A DNA stretch of 8,772 bases, taken from a virus. Taxonomy: Duplodnaviria; Heunggongvirae; Uroviricota; Caudoviricetes. Positions 85 to 8,772 of the stretch are shown one piece after another. Location of the stretch: IMG/VR virus record IMGVR_UViG_2548876958_000017; one strand, 5' to 3'. The notes beneath the pieces are model-generated. The model worked only from the letters and a program-made list of their open reading frames with translations. It did no database searches and was not told where the DNA came from. Position numbers and translations under genes: made by a program. The stretch's first letter is position 1. Each line of letters opens with the position of its first letter.

Positions 85-578
85 TAAGCCCCCACGTAAT
101 TCCCTGACAGATACCACTCTTCACCCGATGCAGCGCGCTTGCTGCTTTTCCGTAAGCACCGCTCACGACGCGCCAGAAAATTGTTTCGTTCTGGCTGGGA
201 GTGGCTTTCACGGAATGCCGCCATCCACACGGTTGCAGCACGACGGTATAAGCCCCTGGACTCCAGTTCTTCCGCCTGGCGGGTCAGGCACAAAATCACA
301 CGGGGATCGTTAGTGCCGACATAGAAATTGCGCACAGGTCTGGTTTCACGAACTGGTTGTGGTTCCGGTTCCTGCGCTCTCTCAGTCAGGCGCGGGAAAT
401 GTCTGCGTGTATCTCCTTCACAACGGTGAGCCACACGCCCACTCTGACGTAACTTGCTTGCTGACTGCAGAACGCGCTGCCGTGAGTAACCGGCAAAAGC
501 ATCCGCAATATCTCCGGAAGTACAGCCCGGATGGGCTTCAATGAATTTCTGAACGTCATTCAAAAGACTCATGCTCAC
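84..578 (-). CDS. Putative PerC/ANR-family-like transcriptional regulator with an N-terminal winged-helix-like domain (164 aa)
   Basis: ATG at 578..576 overlaps the stop of the O-like gene (ATGA coupling). The C-terminal segment LESRGLYRRAATVWMAAF...RRERCLRK resembles the PerC-family motif (GLWRRAA..W / RRN.C) as I recall it. The N-terminal ~60 aa look like a small DNA-binding fold. Family assignment is from memory only. Confidence 0.5.
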   Translation of the reverse strand: MSMSLLNDVQKFIEAHPGCTSGDIADAFAGYSRQRVLQSASKLRQSGRVAHRCEGDTRRHFPRLTERAQEPEPQPVRETRPVRNFYVGTNDPRVILCLTRQAEELESRGLYRRAATVWMAAFRESHSQPERNNFLARRERCLRKSSKRAASGEEWYLSGNYVGA

Positions 579-1516
579 CCCCTGAATCCTGCCGGGATCT
601 GGCTGTAGTCCACGTTGTCGTAACTGGCTTTGAAGTACGGGTCTTCGCGTTTTTCGGTGTACGTGCTGACGGACGGCGATAAGCGCAGGGAAAGCTCATC
701 CCATTTTTCCCGCAGCTTCGACGGGCTGAGCACGTTACGGCACCAGAACGGATCGCGACTGACGCGGCTGTACATCTCGCAGATTTGTTTATGAGTACGA
801 CCATCCTGCACACACATCAGGCGAATTTCGTTTGCCCAGGCTGTCCAGTTCGGTTCTTTGGGACGAACCACCTCGCCGTCACATTCGGCGGCCTGCTCGT
901 ACAGGGCGATGATTTTTTTCCAGAGCCACTGTGCGCAGGTCAAATCATCCTGCGTTCCCCACTGGCGCTTTTTAGGGCTGAATACAACCGCATCAGGATG
1001 GCGAGTTAAAAACTCCTGTTCAGCCGTCTGCGTGTCCGGTTGCGAAGCGTCCGGACGAGAAGTTTTTTTATCTGACGGATCATGTTTTGATTTTACTGAC
1101 GGATCCCCGCCAGATTCTGACGGGTGAAAACCCGCTTTTTTGCCAGATTTCGACGCATCAAATTTTGACGGGTCAGATTTTGATGCGTCAGATTTTGACG
1201 GGTCAGAATCTGACAGTTGAGAAAATGCCGCTGCCTGAAGCTTCGCAACGTTAAGCTGATAAACATTCGACGCATTGCGGTTACCCTGGCGACGCGCCTT
1301 ACGCGTTAACCAGCCTTCTGCTTCCAGCCGTGCGATAGCCGTTCTGACGGTACTCATTCCCGCGCCAATCTGGCGGGCAATGGTTTCAATTGATGGCCAG
1401 CACACACCTTCGTCATTACTGAAATCAGCTAGGCGGGCCATAATTGCCACGCTGGATAATTTCATGCCTGATGCAGCGCAACCATCCCATACATAGCCGG
1501 TTAATTTAGTGCTCAT
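575..1516 (-). CDS. Lambda O-like replication initiator (313 aa) containing the presumed origin iterons
   Basis: GAGG sits 6 nt upstream of ATG (1516..1514). The N-terminal segment is HTH-like (SVAIMARLADFSNDEGVCWPSIETIARQIGAGMSTVRTAIARLEAEGWL). The central low-complexity peptide DPSKSDASKSDPSKFDASKS is encoded by tandem ~15-bp repeats, as in lambda O where ori lies inside the gene. Confidence 0.8.
   Translation of the reverse strand: MSTKLTGYVWDGCAASGMKLSSVAIMARLADFSNDEGVCWPSIETIARQIGAGMSTVRTAIARLEAEGWLTRKARRQGNRNASNVYQLNVAKLQAAAFSQLSDSDPSKSDASKSDPSKFDASKSGKKAGFHPSESGGDPSVKSKHDPSDKKTSRPDASQPDTQTAEQEFLTRHPDAVVFSPKKRQWGTQDDLTCAQWLWKKIIALYEQAAECDGEVVRPKEPNWTAWANEIRLMCVQDGRTHKQICEMYSRVSRDPFWCRNVLSPSKLREKWDELSLRLSPSVSTYTEKREDPYFKASYDNVDYSQIPAGFRG
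1069..1219. repeat. Iteron array (about 7-8 copies, ~15-bp period, core CAGATTTTGACGGGT / TGACGG) inside the O-like gene; candidate replication origin
   Basis: Direct repeats read in sequence: tatctgacggatc, ttactgacggatc, cagattctgacgggt, cagatttcgacgcat, aaattttgacgggtc, agattttgatgcgtc, agattttgacgggtc, agaatctgacagttg. Confidence 0.75.
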
Positions 1517-2455: not shown

Positions 2456-2656
2456 CTAATCTTTCGGATAGATATCCGGTCTTAAGTCAGATTTCGTAAT
2501 TGCACCTGACGTGCATTGCTCAAGTTTTTTAGCCAGCACAAAACTGGCTTTTTTATAGCCATTGAAAACCAGCCGTAAGTAGCCAGGTGTTGAGCCAACT
2601 TTTCCGGCCAACTCGCCCTGCTGTTCTTTGGTTAAAGAGTCCCAATACGCTTTCAT
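2456..2656 (-). CDS. cro: Cro/YdaS-like HTH regulator (66 aa)
   Basis: It is divergent from the repressor gene. ATG at 2656 is preceded by GGAGG about 10 nt upstream on the minus strand. The sequence MKAYWDSLTKEQQGELAGKVGSTPGYLRLVFNGYKKASFVLAKKLEQCTSGAITKSDLRPDIY has a small HTH typical of YdaS/Cro-like proteins. The longer 167-aa ORF form would overlap the operators and the repressor gene. Confidence 0.8.
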   Translation of the reverse strand: MKAYWDSLTKEQQGELAGKVGSTPGYLRLVFNGYKKASFVLAKKLEQCTSGAITKSDLRPDIYPKD

Positions 2657-2746
2657 ACAATATGTACCTCCGGTGTACATATTACATGATTGAAATGAAC
2701 CTTCAAGATACTTGTACCTTAGCGGTACAAGGGTTTTAATTTCGTT
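2657..2746. promoter_or_regulatory. Divergent pR/pRM-type control region with two palindromic operators (OR)
   Basis: Operator 1 is ATGTACctccggtGTACAT at 2662..2680. Operator 2 is cTTGTACCttagcGGTACAAg at 2711..2731, with perfect 8-bp arms. Candidate pR on the minus strand is -35 TTGAAG (plus coords 2701..2706) and -10 TAATAT (2679..2684). There is no SD before the cI ATG, and TTTAAT at 2735..2740 is consistent with a leaderless pRM transcript. Confidence 0.65.
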
Positions 2747-3421
2747 ATGAAAACAATCCATGACATCCGGCGGTCTAACGCCAGAAAACTGAGAGATGGT
2801 GTTGGCGGGAATTCTTCCTTTGCCACTATGATTGATCGCGAGCCAACCCAGACCAGCAGGTTTATGGGAGATGGGGCTACTAAAAATATCGGTGACAGCA
2901 TGGCACGACACATCGAAAAATGTTTCGACCTGCCTGTCGGATGGCTCGATCAAGAACACCAGACAACGAACATCACAAAAAAACCTGATGTTTCAATCAC
3001 TAATAAACAAATCACATTAGTCCCTGTCATATCATGGGTACAGGCCGGAGCATGGAAAGAAGTTGGATATTCTGAGGTTGATTTGAGCACAGCAGAAACG
3101 TATCCCTGCCCTGTACCCTGTGGGGAAATGACTTATATCTTGCGGGTGATAGGTGATTCAATGATTGATGAGTACCGCCCGGGAGACATGATTTTTGTCG
3201 ATCCTGAAGTACCTGCCTGCCACGGTGACGACGTTATTGCATTGATGCACGATACAGGCGAAACCACCTTCAAAAGGTTGATAGAAGATGGGACACAGCG
3301 TTATCTTAAAGCGTTAAACCCAAACTGGCCTGAGCCTTACATTAAGATCAACGGTAATTGCTCTATAATTGGTACAGTGATTTTCTCCGGAAAACCAAGA
3401 AGATACAAAATCAAAGCCTAA
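2747..3421 (+). CDS. CI-type prophage repressor with a C-terminal S24 (LexA-like) autopeptidase domain (224 aa)
   Basis: The C-terminal domain closely parallels P22 C2 / lambda CI: ...ISWVQAGAWKE..., catalytic-Ser context VIGDSM, and Lys context TFKRL; compare P22 C2 ISWVSAGQW...QGDSM...TFKKL. The N-terminal ~90 aa are a distinct DNA-binding domain. It is divergent from cro across the operator region. Confidence 0.9.
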   Translation: MKTIHDIRRSNARKLRDGVGGNSSFATMIDREPTQTSRFMGDGATKNIGDSMARHIEKCFDLPVGWLDQEHQTTNITKKPDVSITNKQITLVPVISWVQAGAWKEVGYSEVDLSTAETYPCPVPCGEMTYILRVIGDSMIDEYRPGDMIFVDPEVPACHGDDVIALMHDTGETTFKRLIEDGTQRYLKALNPNWPEPYIKINGNCSIIGTVIFSGKPRRYKIKA

Positions 3422-3433
3422 TCAATGTTTATG

Positions 3434-3456
3434 AACCTGCTTCGGCAGGTTTTTTT
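3434..3456 (+). terminator. Rho-independent terminator after the repressor gene
   Basis: Perfect 7-bp stem AACCTGC / GCAGGTT with TTCG loop, followed by a T run (ttttttt), starting 13 nt after the cI stop. Confidence 0.8.
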
Positions 3457-3460
3457 ATAC

Positions 3461-3493
3461 TTGACAATGTACCTTTGAGATACATAATGTACC
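3461..3493 (+). promoter_or_regulatory. pL-type early-left promoter with OL operator
   Basis: -35 TTGACA (3461..3466), 16-nt spacer, -10 CATAAT (3483..3488). Operator-like palindrome ATGTACCTTTGAGATACAT (3467..3485) lies between -35 and -10, and a second ATGTACC half-site is at 3487..3493. Same half-site as in OR. Confidence 0.65.
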
Positions 3494-3592
3494 CAACCGA
3501 AACAACGAACAGGCAGGACGCCCACGAAGTAGCCGCCGGTGGCGTATGAATGACCGGATGATTCGTTAAATACTATGTGTAAGAGAGCGCAA

Positions 3593-3796
3593 ATGAACCG
3601 TTATTTCACATGCTCGTTTTGTGGCGCAAACGAGCTGCAGGCAAAAAAAATCATCGCCAAAGGCGGAAAAGATGAAATTGCTATCTGCTCTGAGTGCGTA
3701 GTCTTGTGTGTCGGGGCATTAATCAATATCAGCACAACTATTCAGTTCACACCAAATGAGAATGCGCCTTTAGATGCGAGGAAATCTGGAGGTTAA
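3593..3796 (+). CDS. Small free-standing ClpX-type C4 zinc-finger (ZBD-like) protein (67 aa)
   Basis: Start ATG at 3593 is preceded by GAGAG; the upstream ATG at 3575 has no SD. YFTCSFCGANELQAKKIIAKGGKDEIAICSECVVLCVGALI aligns with the E. coli ClpX N-terminal zinc-binding domain [37 protein letters not shown] (CSFCG ... IC.ECV.LC, four Cys). Confidence 0.7.
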   Translation: MNRYFTCSFCGANELQAKKIIAKGGKDEIAICSECVVLCVGALINISTTIQFTPNENAPLDARKSGG

Positions 3797-3885
3797 AGAA
3801 CAAAATGAAAGTCCAGATTTTAAACAATAACTGTGAAGTCGTTTGGGCGTAAAACATGACCGCGCGTAGACCAAGGGAGGAAAAA

Positions 3886-4062
3886 GTGGGAATAGTTAGA
3901 AATCAAGCAGATATATTGAAAATCAGCTCTGAATTGCTTGGAGTTTTGAAAAGTGAGCTCACCGCACATGGCATCGAGCCCACTGACGAAAATTTAAGTT
4001 GGGTTTTGTCGATTATTCAACAATCACTCAAGCCCAGCCTCAGCAAACTTTTTATCGAGTAG
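3886..4062 (+). CDS. Hypothetical small protein (58 aa from GTG; 68 aa if ATG 3856 is used)
   Basis: Strong SD AGGGAGG at 3874..3880, 5 nt before GTG 3886; the ATG at 3856 lacks an SD. The predicted protein is helical-looking with no recognisable motif. Its 3' end overlaps the convergent minus-strand ORF by 39 nt. Confidence 0.45.
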   Translation: MGIVRNQADILKISSELLGVLKSELTAHGIEPTDENLSWVLSIIQQSLKPSLSKLFIE

Positions 4063-4215
4063 TGCTTCGAACTTATCGTAAAGCTTGCTTATGTCGTCTA
4101 TCGGGTTTTCTGACGTACTGTAATTTTTATCTGATGTCATGGCAGCAGTCTGATATGCAGTGTGAGTCTTAACCGATAGTTGGAATAAATAAAGAATTTT
4201 TTCTTCTTTGGTCAT
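4024..4215 (-). CDS. Hypothetical small protein (63 aa), oriented against the pL operon
   Basis: ATG at 4215 with AAGGAAA about 7 nt upstream on the minus strand. A weak candidate promoter lies in 4216..4300 (minus-strand TTCACC-16-TATCTT). The predicted sequence MTKEEKILYLFQLSVKTHTAYQTAAMTSDKNYSTSENPIDDISKLYDKFEALLDKKFAEAGLE has no recognised family. Confidence 0.5.
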   Translation of the reverse strand: MTKEEKILYLFQLSVKTHTAYQTAAMTSDKNYSTSENPIDDISKLYDKFEALLDKKFAEAGLE

Positions 4216-4259
4216 AACTATTTCCTTCTTGGCTATATGAAAACACCAAGATACCACCG

Positions 4260-4729
4260 AGCCTGAAGTGGTGAAAAGACAGGCACATAACAGCTAAGTA
4301 TTTTCAACCAGAGAGAATCCTTAGCGTTGTGGTGAATGCGGCTCAGCGCACGCGGGTTAAGGTTGAGGCTGACAGTCGACCTTCTGTGGATACCCACCCG
4401 CCTGGTGTGCAACCTTCGCCAGGCACCGGGAGGCACCCGGCACCACAACTTTATGCTGTGTGTAGTCTTGGCGGTACCAGCTTGTACCCTTGCTTCCGGC
4501 TGGTACCGTCCTTTTTACAAAACAGAGAAGAGCATCACCGGACGACGGGCTCATAACCCAATCCATCCGGGCGGCTGCCACCGCAGGTGTTCTTCTCTGT
4601 TTTGTGGAGAAACTAACCGCCCCTACGGGGGCATTTATGGAAATGTAATTGACTCAATAATCGCCGGACGGTGAGGGCCTCCTTTTACCCGAATTCAGCG
4701 CGGTGCAGCGCATATACGTGGAGAACAAA
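4260..4729. other. GC-rich, ORF-poor, hairpin-dense non-coding island (candidate structured RNA or DNA site)
   Basis: Only overlapping ORFs rich in Arg/Gly/Pro and rare codons (AGG, CGG, GGG). 41 of 60 bases at 4381..4440 are G or C, against 22 of 60 at 4081..4140. Perfect 15-bp inverted repeat ACAAAACAGAGAAGA (4517..4531) / TCTTCTCTGTTTTGT (4591..4605); perfect 10-bp inverted repeat CGGTACCAGC (4472..4481) / GCTGGTACCG (4499..4508); further hairpins at 4400..4424, 4426..4440 and 4619..4632. Confidence 0.5.
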
Positions 4730-5266
4730 ATGTCATTTATTAAAACTTTTTCCGGGAAGCATTTTTATTATGACAGGATAAATAAAGACGACATCGTTAT
4801 TAACGATATCGCGGTTTCCCTTTCAAATATCTGTCGCTTTGCAGGACATCTTTCACACTTCTACAGTGTCGCCCAACATGCGGTGCTTTGCAGCCAGCTA
4901 GTGCCACAGGAATTTGCTTTTGAAGCTTTAATGCATGATGCAACAGAAGCATATTGCCAGGACATCCCCGCACCACTGAAACGACTTCTTCCTGACTATA
5001 AACGGATGGAAGAAAAAATAGACGCCGTAATCCGTGAGAAATACGGGTTACCTCCTGTTATGAGCACGCCAGTGAAATATGCCGATCTCATTATGCTGGC
5101 AACCGAACGCCGCGATCTCGGGCTTGATGATGGCTCTTTCTGGCCTGTACTGGAAGGTATCCCGGCAACAGAGATGTTCAAAGTGATTCCACAGGCACCG
5201 AGCCATGCCTACGGGATGTTTATGGAACGTTTTAACGAGTTATCGGAGTTACGCAAATGCGCATGA
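4730..5266 (+). CDS. HD-domain phosphohydrolase, YfbR/YfdR-like putative 5'-deoxynucleotidase (178 aa)
   Basis: SD GGAGA 5 nt before ATG 4730. HD-superfamily metal-ligand pattern: H in ...FAGHLSHFYSVAQHAVL..., HD in ...ALMHDATEAYCQDIP..., downstream D in ...YADLIML.... Size and motif order match the small prophage HD hydrolases such as CPS-53 YfdR as I recall them. Confidence 0.8.
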   Translation: MSFIKTFSGKHFYYDRINKDDIVINDIAVSLSNICRFAGHLSHFYSVAQHAVLCSQLVPQEFAFEALMHDATEAYCQDIPAPLKRLLPDYKRMEEKIDAVIREKYGLPPVMSTPVKYADLIMLATERRDLGLDDGSFWPVLEGIPATEMFKVIPQAPSHAYGMFMERFNELSELRKCA

Positions 5267-5619
5267 ATGTTTTCGAAATGGAAGGGTTTCTTCGTGGGAG
5301 ATGTGTACCGCGAGATCTGAAAGTGAATGAAACAGATGCTGAATACCTGGTGCGTAAATTCGATGCGCTTGAAGCTAAATGTGCAGCACAGGAAAACAAA
5401 GTAATACCAGTGTCAACTGAACTGCCACCAGCAAATGAAAGTGTTTTGTTATTCGATGCTAACGGAGAAGGCTGGCTAATTGGCTGGCGTTCTCTCTGGT
5501 ACACCTGGGGACAAAAAGAAACCGGAGAATGGCAGTGGACATTTCAGGTCGGGAGCCTTGAAAACGTCAATATCACTCACTGGGCAGTAATGCCAAAAGC
5601 ACCGGAGGCTGGAGCATAA
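5257..5619 (+). CDS. DUF551-family phage protein (120 aa)
   Basis: Start overlaps the HD gene stop (ATGCGCATGA; ATG 5257 or 5263). Trp-rich C-terminal domain ...GEGWLIGW...GEWQW...ITHWAVMPKAPE matches the DUF551 C-terminal signature (..THWMPLPEPP) from memory. Confidence 0.7.
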   Translation: MRMNVFEMEGFLRGRCVPRDLKVNETDAEYLVRKFDALEAKCAAQENKVIPVSTELPPANESVLLFDANGEGWLIGWRSLWYTWGQKETGEWQWTFQVGSLENVNITHWAVMPKAPEAGA

Positions 5620-5924
5620 TGACCACTTTTACCGACAAAGAACTGATTAAAGAAATTAAAGAGCGTATCAGCAGCCTTGACGTGCGAGACGATATTGAGC
5701 GCCGTGCTTATGAAATCGCACTCCTATCTCTGGAAGTAGAACCAGATGAACGCGAAGCTTATGAATTATTCATGGAAAAGCGTTTCGGTGACTTAGTAGA
5801 TCGTCGGAGAGCAAAAAACGGCGATAACGAATACATGGCATGGGATATGACTCTCGGTTGGATCGTCTGGCAGCAACGAGCAGGTATCCATTTTTCAACA
5901 ATGTCACAACAAGAGGTGAAATAA
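5619..5924 (+). CDS. Hypothetical phage protein (101 aa)
   Basis: ATG overlaps the previous stop (TAATG at 5617..5621) and its own stop overlaps the xis ATG (TAATG at 5922..5926). GGAG lies upstream. No family recognised. Confidence 0.6.
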   Translation: MTTFTDKELIKEIKERISSLDVRDDIERRAYEIALLSLEVEPDEREAYELFMEKRFGDLVDRRRAKNGDNEYMAWDMTLGWIVWQQRAGIHFSTMSQQEVK

Positions 5925-6274
5925 TGGAGCCATACAGCCTCACACTCGATGAGGCCTGTCATTTTCTCAAGATATCCAGACCGACTGCCATTAACTGGAT
6001 ACGCACAGGGCGTCTTCAGGCAACACGCAAAGATCCCACTAAGAATAAATCTCCTTACCTCACAACACGACAAGCCTGCATTGCGGCTCTTCAGTCTCCG
6101 CTGCATACTGTCCAGGTGAGCGCGGGTGATGGCATAACAGAGGAAAGAAAATGTCACTCTTCCGCAGAGGTGAAATATGGTACGCCAGTTTCACATTGCC
6201 GAACGGTAAAAGATTTAAACAGTCTCTTGGAACAAAGGACAAAAGGCAGGCGACAGAACTCCATGACAAGCTAA
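5924..6274 (+). CDS. xis: Excisionase (Xis), P22-type, 116 aa; its 3' end overlaps int by 124 nt
   Basis: ATG 5924 is translationally coupled to the upstream gene, with GAGGTGA as SD. The N-terminal sequence [30 protein letters not shown] is a classic excisionase/AlpA-type HTH. It sits immediately upstream of int. The 116-aa length matches my recollection of P22 Xis. Confidence 0.75.
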
Positions 6275-7314
6275 AGGCTGAAGCATGGCGGGTCAGCAAA
6301 CTTGGTGAAATACCTGATATAACGTTCGAGGAAGCGTGTGTCAGGTGGCTTGAAGAGAAAGCACATAAAAAATCACTGGACGATGACAAAAGCCGGATCG
6401 GATTCTGGCTTCAACATTTCGCAGGAATGCAACTAAGAGACATTACTGAATCAAAAATTTATTCAGCAATGCAGAAAATGACGAACCGGCGTCATGAGGA
6501 AAACTGGAAACTCAGGGCAGAAGCATGCAGAAAAAAAGGGAAACCTGTTCCAGAATACACGCCAAAACCAGCGTCCGTTGCAACGAAGGCTACGCATCTT
6601 TCATTTATAAAGGCCCTACTAAGAGCCGCAGAGCGTGAATGGAAAATGCTGGATAAGGCACCAATTATTAAAGTGCCTCAACCAAAGAATAAACGGATCC
6701 GCTGGCTGGAGCCCCATGAAGCACAAAGGCTGATTGATGAATGTCCGGAGCCATTAAAGTCTGTTGTTGAATTTGCACTGGCAACAGGCTTAAGACGCTC
6801 GAACATCATCAACCTTGAATGGCAACAAATAGATATGCAGCGCCGGGTGGCATGGATAAACCCGGAAGAGAGTAAATCAAACCGCGCAATTGGCGTTGCG
6901 CTGAATGATACTGCATGTCGCGTATTGAAAAAACAAATCGGGAATCATCACCGTTGGGTATTTGTGTACAAGGAAAGCTGTACCAAACCAGACGGAACGA
7001 AAGCGCCAACAGTCAGGAAGATGCGGTATGACGCAAACACAGCCTGGAAAGCGGCGCTGAGACGGGCTGGTATTGATGATTTCAGATTTCACGACTTGAG
7101 ACACACCTGGGCAAGTTGGCTGGTTCAAGCCGGAGTCCCGTTGTCAGTGTTACAGGAAATGGGAGGCTGGGAGTCTATCGAAATGGTTCGTCGATATGCT
7201 CACCTTGCACCTAATCACCTTACCGAACACGCACGGCAAATAGACTCGATCCTGAACCCATCGGTCCCAAATTTGTCCCAGTCAAAAAATAAGGAAGATA
7301 CTAATGATGTGTAA
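6151..7314 (+). CDS. int: Tyrosine site-specific integrase, P22-like (387 aa)
   Basis: SD GAGGAAAG before ATG 6151. The N-terminus [46 protein letters not shown] is nearly identical to P22 Int as I recall it. C-terminal catalytic region has R...HDLRHT...RY ([39 protein letters not shown]). It ends 15 bp from the tRNA 3' end. Confidence 0.95.
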
Positions 7315-7328
7315 CTTATTGATTTAAA

Positions 7329-7404
7329 TGGTGCCGATAATAGGAGTCGAACCTACGACCTTCGCATTACGAATGCGCTGCTCTACCAACTGAGCTATAT
7401 CGGC
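7329..7404 (-). tRNA. thrW: tRNA-Thr (anticodon CGU), with encoded CCA
   Basis: The reverse complement reads GCCGATATAGCTCAGTTGGTAGAGCAGCGCATTCGTAATGCGAAGGTCGTAGGTTCGACTCCTATTATCGGCACCA. It has canonical D-loop (AGCTCAGTTGGTAGAGC), anticodon loop (CATTCGTAATG) and T-loop (GGTTCGACTCC), and a 7-bp acceptor stem (GCCGATA / TATCGGC). Confidence 0.97.
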
Positions 7405-7518: not shown

Positions 7519-8772
7519 TTACGCACGAATGGTGTAATCACCAATGCCGATCCACTTGTAAGTGGTCAGTGCTTCCAGCCCCATTGGGCCACGCGCGTGG
7601 AGTTTTTGTGTGCTTACCGCCACTTCCGCACCCAGACCAAACTGGCCGCCGTCGGTAAAACGCGTAGAGGCGTTAACGTAAACAGCGGACGAATCCACTT
7701 CGTTAACAAAACGCTGGGCGTTGCGCATATCGCGGGTCAGGATCGCATCGGAGTGTTGTGTGCCGTGTTCACGAATATGGGCGATGGCATCGTCAAGATC
7801 GCTGACGATTTTGACGTTCAAATCTAATGACAGAAACTCATCGTCATACTCTTCGGCTTTAACAGCAACCACCTTCGCAGGGCCTGCCTGCAACTGCGCC
7901 AGTGCAGCTGCATCTGCGTGTAATGTCACGCCGCTTTCCGCCATTTGTTTGCTTAATGCGGGCAGGAAGCTATCGGCGATGTTTTTATTCACCAGCAACG
8001 TTTCAACCGTATTACATGTGCTCGGACGCTGAGTTTTCGCGTTGACGATCACTTTTAATGCTTCAGCGATCTCTACACTTTCATCAACGTAAATATGGCA
8101 TACGCCTATACCACCTGTGATCACCGGGATTGTCGACTGTTCACGGCACAGTTTATGCAAACCAGCGCCACCACGCGGGATCAGCATGTCGATGTATTTA
8201 TCCATACGCAGCATTTCACTGACCAGCGCACGGTCAGGATTATCAATCGCCTGCACGGCACCCGCCGGTAAGCCGCAGGATTTCAGGGCGTCCTGAATCA
8301 CCGCCACCGTTGCAGCGTTAGTGCGACACGTTTCTTTGCCACCGCGCAGGATCACCGCATTACCGGTTTTCAGGCACAGCGAAGCGACATCAACCGTCAC
8401 GTTCGGGCGCGCTTCATAAATCACGCCAATAACCCCCAGCGGTACGCGACGACGCTCAAGACGCAGGCCGCTGTCCAGTACGCTGCCATCGATTACCTGC
8501 CCCACCGGATCGGCGAGGTTACACACCTGGCGCACATCATCGGCAATGCCTTTCAGCCGTGCGGGCGTCAGTGCCAGACGGTCAAGCATCGCTTCGCCAA
8601 GGCCATTGGCACGCGCGTCAGCAACATCCTGGGCGTTAGCGTTGAGGATGATTTCGCTTTGTGCTTCCAGTTCATCGGCGATTTTTTCCAGCACGCGATT
8701 TTTTTCGCGGCTGGAGAGTTGCGCTAATTTATACGAGGCTTGCTTCGCGGCAATGCCCATTTGTTCCAGCAT
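7519..8772 (-). CDS. proA: Gamma-glutamyl phosphate reductase (glutamate-5-semialdehyde dehydrogenase), 417 aa
   Basis: Full-length ORF whose translation ([30 protein letters not shown] ... [15 protein letters not shown]) I recognise as Escherichia coli ProA. The start codon is the last three bases of the window, so upstream context is absent. Confidence 0.95.

Follow-up and report, generated by a model that had tools for sequence, protein, structure and literature searches.

Small open reading frames (ORFs) that converge and overlap at their 3' ends raise the question of whether both are genes and, if so, whether they belong together. We addressed this question for a pair of such ORFs in an 8,772-nucleotide (nt) stretch of viral DNA (hereafter the window; IMG/VR record IMGVR_UViG_2548876958_000017, Caudoviricetes), in which a plus-strand ORF of 58 amino acids (aa; 3886..4062) and a minus-strand ORF of 63 aa (4024..4215) share 39 nt that are coding on both strands (4024..4062). 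The window is a lambdoid prophage, similar to Shigella phage SfII, at thrW/proA. Both ORFs encode proteins and are under purifying selection. As a co-inherited pair, they occupy the first variable slot of the early-left operon in lambdoid prophages of the SfII/SfV/e14 type. Neither product has a match in Pfam, NCBIfam, PADLOC or the Protein Data Bank that would point to a role. The feature is more systematic than the initial annotation of this DNA suggested. It combines an accessory hot-spot and a convergent overlap with an unexplained rule of module pairing.

The architecture described in the initial annotation, a 58-aa and a 63-aa ORF converging with a 39-nt overlap, is confirmed by the ORF table and the sequence. 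The overlap is kept in eight of nine distinct divergent variants and is 27 nt long in the remaining one. Two starts are available to each ORF. The plus-strand ORF may begin at ATG 3856 (68 aa) or at the in-frame GTG 3886 (58 aa), which follows GGGAGGA, and it ends with TAG at 4060-4062. The minus-strand ORF may begin at GTG 4257 (77 aa) or at ATG 4215 (63 aa), the latter after AAGGAAA (4227->4221), and its TGA stop is the complement of 4024-4026. Homologues of the two proteins, 56-64 aa and 57-64 aa long respectively, have their conserved starts at the positions of 3886 and 4215, in agreement with the starts originally named. Protein searches recovered homologues of both from Escherichia, Klebsiella, Kluyvera and Atlantibacter, with identities of 64-97%.

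It might be supposed that one of the ORFs is a chance frame opposite a real gene. RefSeq could be read in this way, as it names only the minus-strand ORF in both SfII (SfII_36) and E. coli (WP_000159356) and leaves the plus-strand ORF unannotated. Yet just 39 nt are held in common, so each ORF has DNA of its own. Both are open with a fixed stop in all nine variants, that of the plus-strand ORF always at the same place, at protein identities to the window of 50-88% (plus) and 63-95% (minus). The possibility that only one of the two is conserved, allowed for at the outset, is contradicted by their joint conservation in these variants. The ratio of nonsynonymous to synonymous substitution (dN/dS, Nei-Gojobori, nine variants) is 0.20 for the plus-strand ORF and 0.10 for the minus-strand ORF, and 0.8-3.2 for four of the five other frames. 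A low dN/dS (0.26) is also seen, for either ORF, in the antisense frame with a common wobble position. This lends the artefact some support, but the frame is not consistently open and the antisense ORFs over the plus-strand gene are inconsistent between variants. The proportion of synonymous differences (pS) is 0.25-0.28 inside the overlap versus 0.59-0.65 in the non-overlapping parts, as expected because both strands code there; no convincing excess of synonymous conservation was seen upstream of it. The plus-strand protein also has 46 homologue clusters, as well as a fused form. Overall, we find a chance frame scarcely credible.

The first impression that neither product matches a recognised family holds for curated libraries only. 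The PHROG collection contains both, as phrog_15476 (plus-strand product, E 1e-40) and phrog_2605 (minus-strand product, E 1e-33), two families whose function is unassigned. The minus-strand family is small, with just 14 clusters, all of 48-94 aa, found in a profile search of 1.84 billion representatives and detectable to E 6e-4. Comparison of the 58-aa and 63-aa products by hhalign gave no homology between them, and sequence-profile searches of the Protein Data Bank (PDB) with both returned nothing meaningful. Neither contains a transmembrane segment (maximum 19-residue hydropathy 0.46 and 0.80). AlphaFold models both as two-helix hairpins (predicted local distance difference test scores 74 and 78); Foldseek comparison of these models with the PDB gave no match at E < 0.001, two-helix hairpins being uninformative in this respect.

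The two genes are inherited as a unit. Every locus retrieved by way of either protein proved to encode its partner as well, and across 11 loci the identity of the 58-aa protein (the C-module) is strongly correlated with that of the reverse protein (r = 0.95, Mantel p = 1e-4). The pairing persists to about 30-45% identity, and at this low identity it holds in three different configurations of the N-terminal module (N-module). For example, the locus L142 encodes a 111-aa plus-strand protein that shares 58% identity at its N-terminus with the ClpX-finger ORF of the window, carries the C-module at its C-terminus and converges, with a 30-nt overlap, on a 61-aa member of the reverse family. Likewise, a 57-aa reverse protein lies opposite a 130-aa plus-strand protein in L140 (hhalign probability 95.9%, E 6e-9), and one of 66 aa opposite a 125-aa protein in L046. 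In Klebsiella P0070, a ClpX zinc finger and the C-module are joined in one protein, the N-terminus of which is 58% identical to a ClpX-finger ORF of the window. The window thus has two ORFs (3593-3796 and 3886-4062) where Klebsiella has a single protein.

This pair is one of many in the same position. In an alignment of the nine variants, homology extends past the start codon of the reverse gene up to 4285 and then ends. This region includes a block, with the core ATACCACCGAGCCTGAAGTGGTGAAAAGACAGG (4251-4284), that is also present in e14 and SfV and lies 35 nt from the start of the reverse gene. We surveyed 118 unique segments upstream of the block, taken from viral contigs. Their reverse ORFs fall into 27 unrelated clusters, including membrane proteins, zinc ribbons, YmfI and an 81-aa ORF of SfV, and almost none of this reverse cargo has a Pfam match. 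A convergent plus-strand ORF of at least 55 aa overlaps the reverse gene by 1-100 nt in 74 segments (63%), representing 19 of the 27 clusters, whereas the expectation for such a partner is 8.6% when the 450 nt that adjoin the stop of the reverse gene towards cI are shuffled. The 19 convergent families include ymfJ/ymfI of e14.

The plus-strand proteins on the pL side are mosaics. Their recurring N-modules (a YmfJ-type N-terminus, a MEFKDLP type, a ClpX zinc finger and an ANGL..W..K type) combine with differing C-termini. C-terminal clusters map approximately one-to-one onto reverse-gene clusters, with one of the 20 C-clusters shared. By contrast, four N-clusters are each found alongside several of the reverse clusters, and YmfI is accompanied by three N types.

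These data bear on the main rival explanation, that an ordinary early-left gene on the plus strand and a stand-alone moron are independent accessory genes held together by linkage, with their overlap a product of compaction. To the left of the pair, recombination would occur in the conserved pL leader or in shared N-modules, and to its right in the promoter block. Consistent with this, the breakpoint of the mosaic with the SfII reference (3803) falls exactly at the left edge of the cassette, both flanks are common to unrelated cassettes, and an overlapping partner is lacking in eight of the 27 cargo families, among them membrane and zinc-ribbon proteins. The partners also show no pattern of charge complementarity. 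Linkage does not readily explain why convergent overlap recurs in 19 unrelated families and so far above the shuffled expectation, why the C-terminal ~45 aa stays with the reverse gene in all but one of 20 clusters while N-modules swap within the same gene, or why pairing survives to such low identity in three N-module configurations. We consider this explanation possible, if on balance doubtful.

Individual prophages provide further examples of the slot. In SfV (L004), an unannotated 81-aa reverse ORF (3696-3941, minus strand) converges on orf33, the two sharing 83 nt, and has the same block after it; reverse ORFs of this type recur in 17 unique viral-contig segments. In L007 (3303-3835 and 4001-4330) and L008, two convergent pairs are arranged in tandem in one prophage, each with its own copy of the block.

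The upstream sequence predicts when the plus-strand gene is expressed. A promoter with the sequence TTGACA-16-CATAAT (3461..3488, plus strand; 11 of 12 consensus positions) is, judged by its sequence, an early-left promoter of the pL type under repressor control. Between its hexamers lies a cI operator, TGTACCTTTGAGATACA (3468-3484), that matches both of the operators (TGTACC-N5-GGTACA; 2663-2679 and 2713-2729) in the cI/cro intergenic region. Together, the three copies of this 17-bp palindrome define the right and left operators (OR and OL) of an immunity type common to e14 and SfV, and the same promoter and operator are found upstream of e14 ymfJ, where they are identical, and of SfV orf33. 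As the operator is inside a strong promoter, the plus-strand gene should be silent in the lysogen and turned on once the repressor is cleaved. The promoter lies after the intrinsic terminator of the cI transcript (3433..3452, plus strand), which is also annotated as a terminator in SfII and SfV. It is followed by a conserved pL leader block (..GAACAGGCAGGACGCCCACGAAGTAGCCGCC.., 3498..3560, plus strand) that occurs at many loci upstream of the first early-left gene; the folding of this leader is not significant.

The plus-strand gene thereby has the placement of a gene in a lambda-type early-left operon, downstream of an operator-bearing promoter and on the int/xis strand. It does not have the characteristics of an N-type antiterminator: its N-terminus, MGIVRNQADILK, is not arginine-rich, its isoelectric point is 5.2 and it has no N-family match in Pfam. 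A terminator scan of the plus strand found none between the promoter and 4750, and hence a single operon would extend from the ClpX-finger ORF through the 58-aa ORF and the genes beyond it as far as xis and int. Transcription from pL would therefore run through the reverse gene.

The first gene after pL is the ClpX-type C4 zinc-finger ORF, the N-module of the window (3593..3796, plus strand; Pfam PF06689, E 7e-10). The longest ORF runs from 3575, and the start at 3593 agrees with the call of the Prokaryotic Genome Annotation Pipeline (PGAP) and with the Klebsiella fusion protein. This ORF is unannotated, and it is absent from the SfII reference genome. Adjoining the mosaic joint at 3803 is a remnant, 15 codons long, of the 5' part of a gene of the SfV-orf33 type (3805..3852, plus strand), encoding MKVQILNNNCEVVWA and closed by TAA. 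Its DNA at 3805-3849 is identical to the part of SfV orf33 that encodes MKVQILNNNCEVVW; it ends in TAA where SfV reads TAC, and is in frame with ATG 3856. We interpret it as a recombination scar or a coupling leader.

From cI (2747-3421) to int (6151-7314), every gene is on the plus strand except the 63-aa reverse gene, and its description as a reverse-oriented insert in a co-directional operon is therefore accurate. The gene is preceded by a control region (4221..4284, minus strand) that comprises the Shine-Dalgarno sequence (SD) AAGGAAA, a hairpin, a putative extended -10, a putative -35 and the invariant block at 4251-4284. The block was detected in at least 120 viral contigs. Among 5426 complete E. 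coli genomes, at least 854 have it, in each case as intergenic DNA that carries no annotation. A reverse ORF adjoins it in 113 of 114 unique segments, and the start codon is 31-39 nt away in 68 of 77 distinct upstream sequences. On the minus strand, the block reads TT(C/A/T)ACC, a 16-nt spacer and TGG-TATNNT, which in the window correspond to a putative -35 TTCACC (4275->4270) and a putative extended -10 TGG-TATCTT (4256->4248). The -10 is TATNNT in 75 of the 77 distinct sequences. These features suggest that the reverse gene has a sigma-70 promoter of its own within the block, from which transcription would run against the operon. Immunity genes vary among loci with the same block, so it is not a cI operator; as it is kept regardless of immunity type, the reverse gene is probably independent of cI.

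A hairpin (arms 4227-4232 and 4246-4251) is located between the block and the SD. Its arms covary by cargo type (TCTTGG/CCAAGA, TGCTGG/CCAGCA, TACTGG/CCAGTA and TCCTTTTA/TAAAAGGA), and its Watson-Crick stem averages 6.06 bp versus 4.12 +/- 0.20 in chimeric controls. It shares sequence with the putative -10 and also with the complement of the SD of the reverse gene. As a guide to the strand on which the hairpin folds, G.U wobble is ambiguous (12 vs 18), and folding of the control block as a single sequence gave a z-score of about 0 on either strand. The invariant block can also be drawn as a pseudoknot in which ACCAC/GTGGT is interleaved with GCCTG/CAGGC. A search of the rest of the window for another copy of the block or of its inverted repeat, with a put-like or CII-site function in mind, found none. 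A search of eight related loci with Rfam returned no known small RNA besides an STnc100-like match in SfV.

The two transcripts are likely to meet. A scan for intrinsic terminators found none on either strand between 3525 and 4618, and hence none between the two genes; a reverse candidate at 3525->3509 was dropped after folding gave a z-score of about 0. As the convergent ORFs share 39 nt, their transcripts would have to overlap there at least.

The nearest analogue of the pair is ymfJ/ymfI of e14. It occupies the same slot, with the pL promoter, operator and leader before the plus-strand gene and the block before the reverse gene, and is likewise convergent, with an overlap of 63 nt. It differs in that its proteins are about twice as long. 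By hhalign, the window pair has no homology to YmfJ and YmfI (probability below 1%). Published RNA-seq data list ymfI-ymfJ as a convergent excludon. Late in the SOS response of K-12, ymfJ rises by 4.83 log2 units (28-fold), YmfJ protein is detected and intE is induced alongside, while ymfI rises by 1.98 log2 units (about 4-fold) in a stranded library. One iModulon contains ymfJ, ymfH, xisE and intE, and ymfI is not in it.

This analogue is informative about the proposal in the initial annotation that the genes are coupled by antisense transcription. The architecture, the lack of a terminator and the listing of the e14 pair as an excludon are in favour of coupling; simple mutual exclusion is not, given the increase in ymfI on SOS. 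In its extreme form, this proposal would give the reverse transcript itself, as an antisense RNA or excludon, control over the early-left operon and leave the reverse ORF incidental. The covarying hairpin at the 5' end of the reverse gene could be added in its favour, as could the convergence of genes with no terminator between them. Against this, the reverse ORF has a dN/dS of 0.10 and a conserved start and SD, its product belongs to a protein family that profiles detect to E 6e-4, and ymfI is not silenced on SOS. An RNA-only function is thus very unlikely.

The best explanation for these observations, to which we give slightly less than an even chance, is that the two genes encode a cognate protein pair, comprising a cI-independent reverse cargo and a partner made at induction, with an antisense overlap between them. 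The 63-aa protein would be the cargo, probably expressed in the lysogen. The 58-aa protein would be its cognate partner, produced at induction, and may bind the cargo protein and neutralise or redirect it. In relatives, exchangeable N-modules are fused to the 58-aa module, whereas in the window the ClpX zinc finger is a separate upstream ORF. Convergent transcription and antisense pairing could couple the two expression states at the RNA level. Such a pair would resemble a prophage accessory or defence function with cognate self-immunity.

Several considerations weigh against a cognate pair. The case for an interaction between the two proteins, and for their expression, is indirect. Tight linkage between conserved, recombination-prone flanks could by itself produce both the co-inheritance and the mirror-tree correlation. 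Scans of both products against Pfam, NCBIfam and PADLOC gave zero matches, the simple helical-hairpin models have no informative fold match, and the partners' charges, as noted above, are not complementary. The putative reverse promoter matches the consensus at only 8 of 12 positions and is not reported by a consensus scan; moreover, because the search pattern itself fixed its -35 and TG bases, the conservation of these bases does not test it independently. Finally, the increase in ymfI during SOS argues against reciprocal silencing or strict mutual exclusion.

The polarity of the pair could also be reversed, in a buffer resembling a toxin-antitoxin system. Here, the pL-side protein would be an early effector directed at the host and the reverse protein its cognate, cI-independent inhibitor, which would titrate leaky pL expression in the lysogen and sharpen the induction switch. 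The evidence for pairing serves this explanation as well as it serves the preceding one, and the reverse transcript would again be antisense to the plus-strand gene. The N-modules look like exchangeable effector domains, one of them a ClpX zinc-finger look-alike, which could compete for the adaptor or substrate contacts of ClpX. However, several loci (L005, L010, L012 and L018) have just the 58-aa C-module as their pL-side gene and lack an effector module, and thus the C-module must act by itself. In addition, no toxin or antitoxin family matches either product and the genes are not co-transcribed. We regard this arrangement as unlikely.

A cognate pair in the window may be an instance of something broader. 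We tentatively suggest, while thinking it rather improbable in full, that the slot holds a large and undescribed class of modular two-protein cassettes. The reverse protein would be cI-independent, the C-terminal ~45 aa of the first early-left protein would be its specific partner, and the N-module (a ClpX-finger look-alike or one of at least three others) would be exchangeable. The pair would serve an accessory or defence role in which the cognate self-immunity, or the switch, is protein-based and is reinforced by an obligatory antisense overlap. At least 19 unrelated versions would exist, including ymfJ/ymfI of K-12.

The slot merits attention because it is common, as the count of E. coli genomes with the block indicates, and because nearly all of its cargo is without a Pfam match. 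It also exposes gaps in annotation: the plus-strand gene is absent from RefSeq for SfII and E. coli prophages, and both the SfV reverse ORF and the ClpX-finger ORF are unannotated. If the proteins are cognate partners, these cassettes would be a common and compact answer to a problem that prophages face at the switch from lysogeny to lysis, namely a lysogen function that needs to be cancelled or a lytic function that needs to be buffered. This would also give a function to ymfJ and ymfI of K-12, where it could be easily tested.

The remainder of the window is consistent with its assignment. The tRNA-Thr gene (7329-7404) and proA (7519-8772) follow int. Compared with the SfII genome, the window is 99.1% identical at 3803-7374 and 97.6% at 1-2440, with no match at 3567-3803 or in the immunity region. 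Its cI protein is nearly identical to that of SfV, and the 3' end of the cI gene matches the e14 repressor gene ymfK. SfV, e14 and SfII differ from one another only in this cassette. The right flank of the slot contains an element (4296..4519, plus strand) that overlaps the ymfH-like ORF SfII_35 and matches the STnc100 model over its full length (43.4 bits, E 6e-7). As this score is under the Rfam gathering score of 47, the element is best termed a related, STnc100/PasD-like small RNA element. The ORF lying over it (4336-4674; SfII_35, e14 ymfH) is called a frameshifted pseudogene by PGAP in E. coli KE58, and this 'gene' may be an RNA rather than a protein.

Other observations were made in the surrounding regions. 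A 15-bp repeat, CAGATTTTGACGGGT, is present in 4.3 copies (1144-1207) inside an O-like replication gene (575-1516, minus strand); these are probably origin iterons, and a microRNA match in Rfam upon them is spurious. The E. coli KE58 prophage (L001), which carries the same cassette, has a BRCT-domain gene (2501-3391, minus strand) as a reverse insert directly after the repressor, a further sign that accessory genes gather near the repressor. The early-right region of SfV (L004) contains a C4 antisense RNA (1204-1291, minus strand; 82 bits) and isrK (1316-1392, minus strand; 64 bits), both above the gathering score.

Among known systems, rexAB of lambda and BstA/aba resemble the cassette in their position, a mosaic hot-spot adjoining the prophage repressor. 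It has been reported that this repressor-adjacent region is a mosaic hot-spot for rexAB and bstA, and that bstA comes with a cognate self-immunity element. BstA/aba is also close to the proposed pair in concept, being a prophage-expressed function that requires cognate self-immunity at induction. The arrangement is distinct, however. Whereas rexAB and bstA lie between cI and pL, in the direction of cI and on its promoter, the window cassette is after the terminator (3433-3452) and pL, within the early-left operon, and its cargo is reversed. The BstA antidote is a DNA element, while the proposed partner in the window is a protein. We found no homology to the rexAB and BstA systems and no PADLOC match.

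Some type I toxin-antitoxin systems show convergent 3' overlap, and type I and II systems share with the window the format of a small two-gene cassette on a mobile element. The suggestion of a classical toxin-antitoxin-like cassette is nevertheless not upheld. Both partners are soluble, conserved proteins and are not co-transcribed. With respect to type I, there is no hydrophobic toxin peptide and both strands encode proteins under purifying selection; with respect to type II, the genes are convergent rather than in one operon, neither product matches a toxin, antitoxin or defence family and there is no DNA-binding antitoxin fold. The pair resembles an excludon in having convergent genes with overlapping 3' ends and no intervening terminator. 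It departs from one in that its e14 analogue is not reciprocally regulated and its overlap includes coding sequence of both genes.

The moron, an extra gene of the Hendrix type that has a promoter and a terminator to itself, is a partial fit. This label, also proposed in the initial annotation, suits the reverse gene, which is reverse cargo in a hypervariable slot, has a conserved control block upstream and is replaced between related phages by unrelated cargo (27 families after the same block). It does not suit the plus-strand gene, which is an early-left gene under a cI operator. Even the reverse gene differs from a typical moron in three respects: no terminator of its own was found downstream, its putative promoter block belongs permanently to the phage backbone and is not brought by the cargo, and the cargo brings with it a matched part of the neighbouring operon gene.

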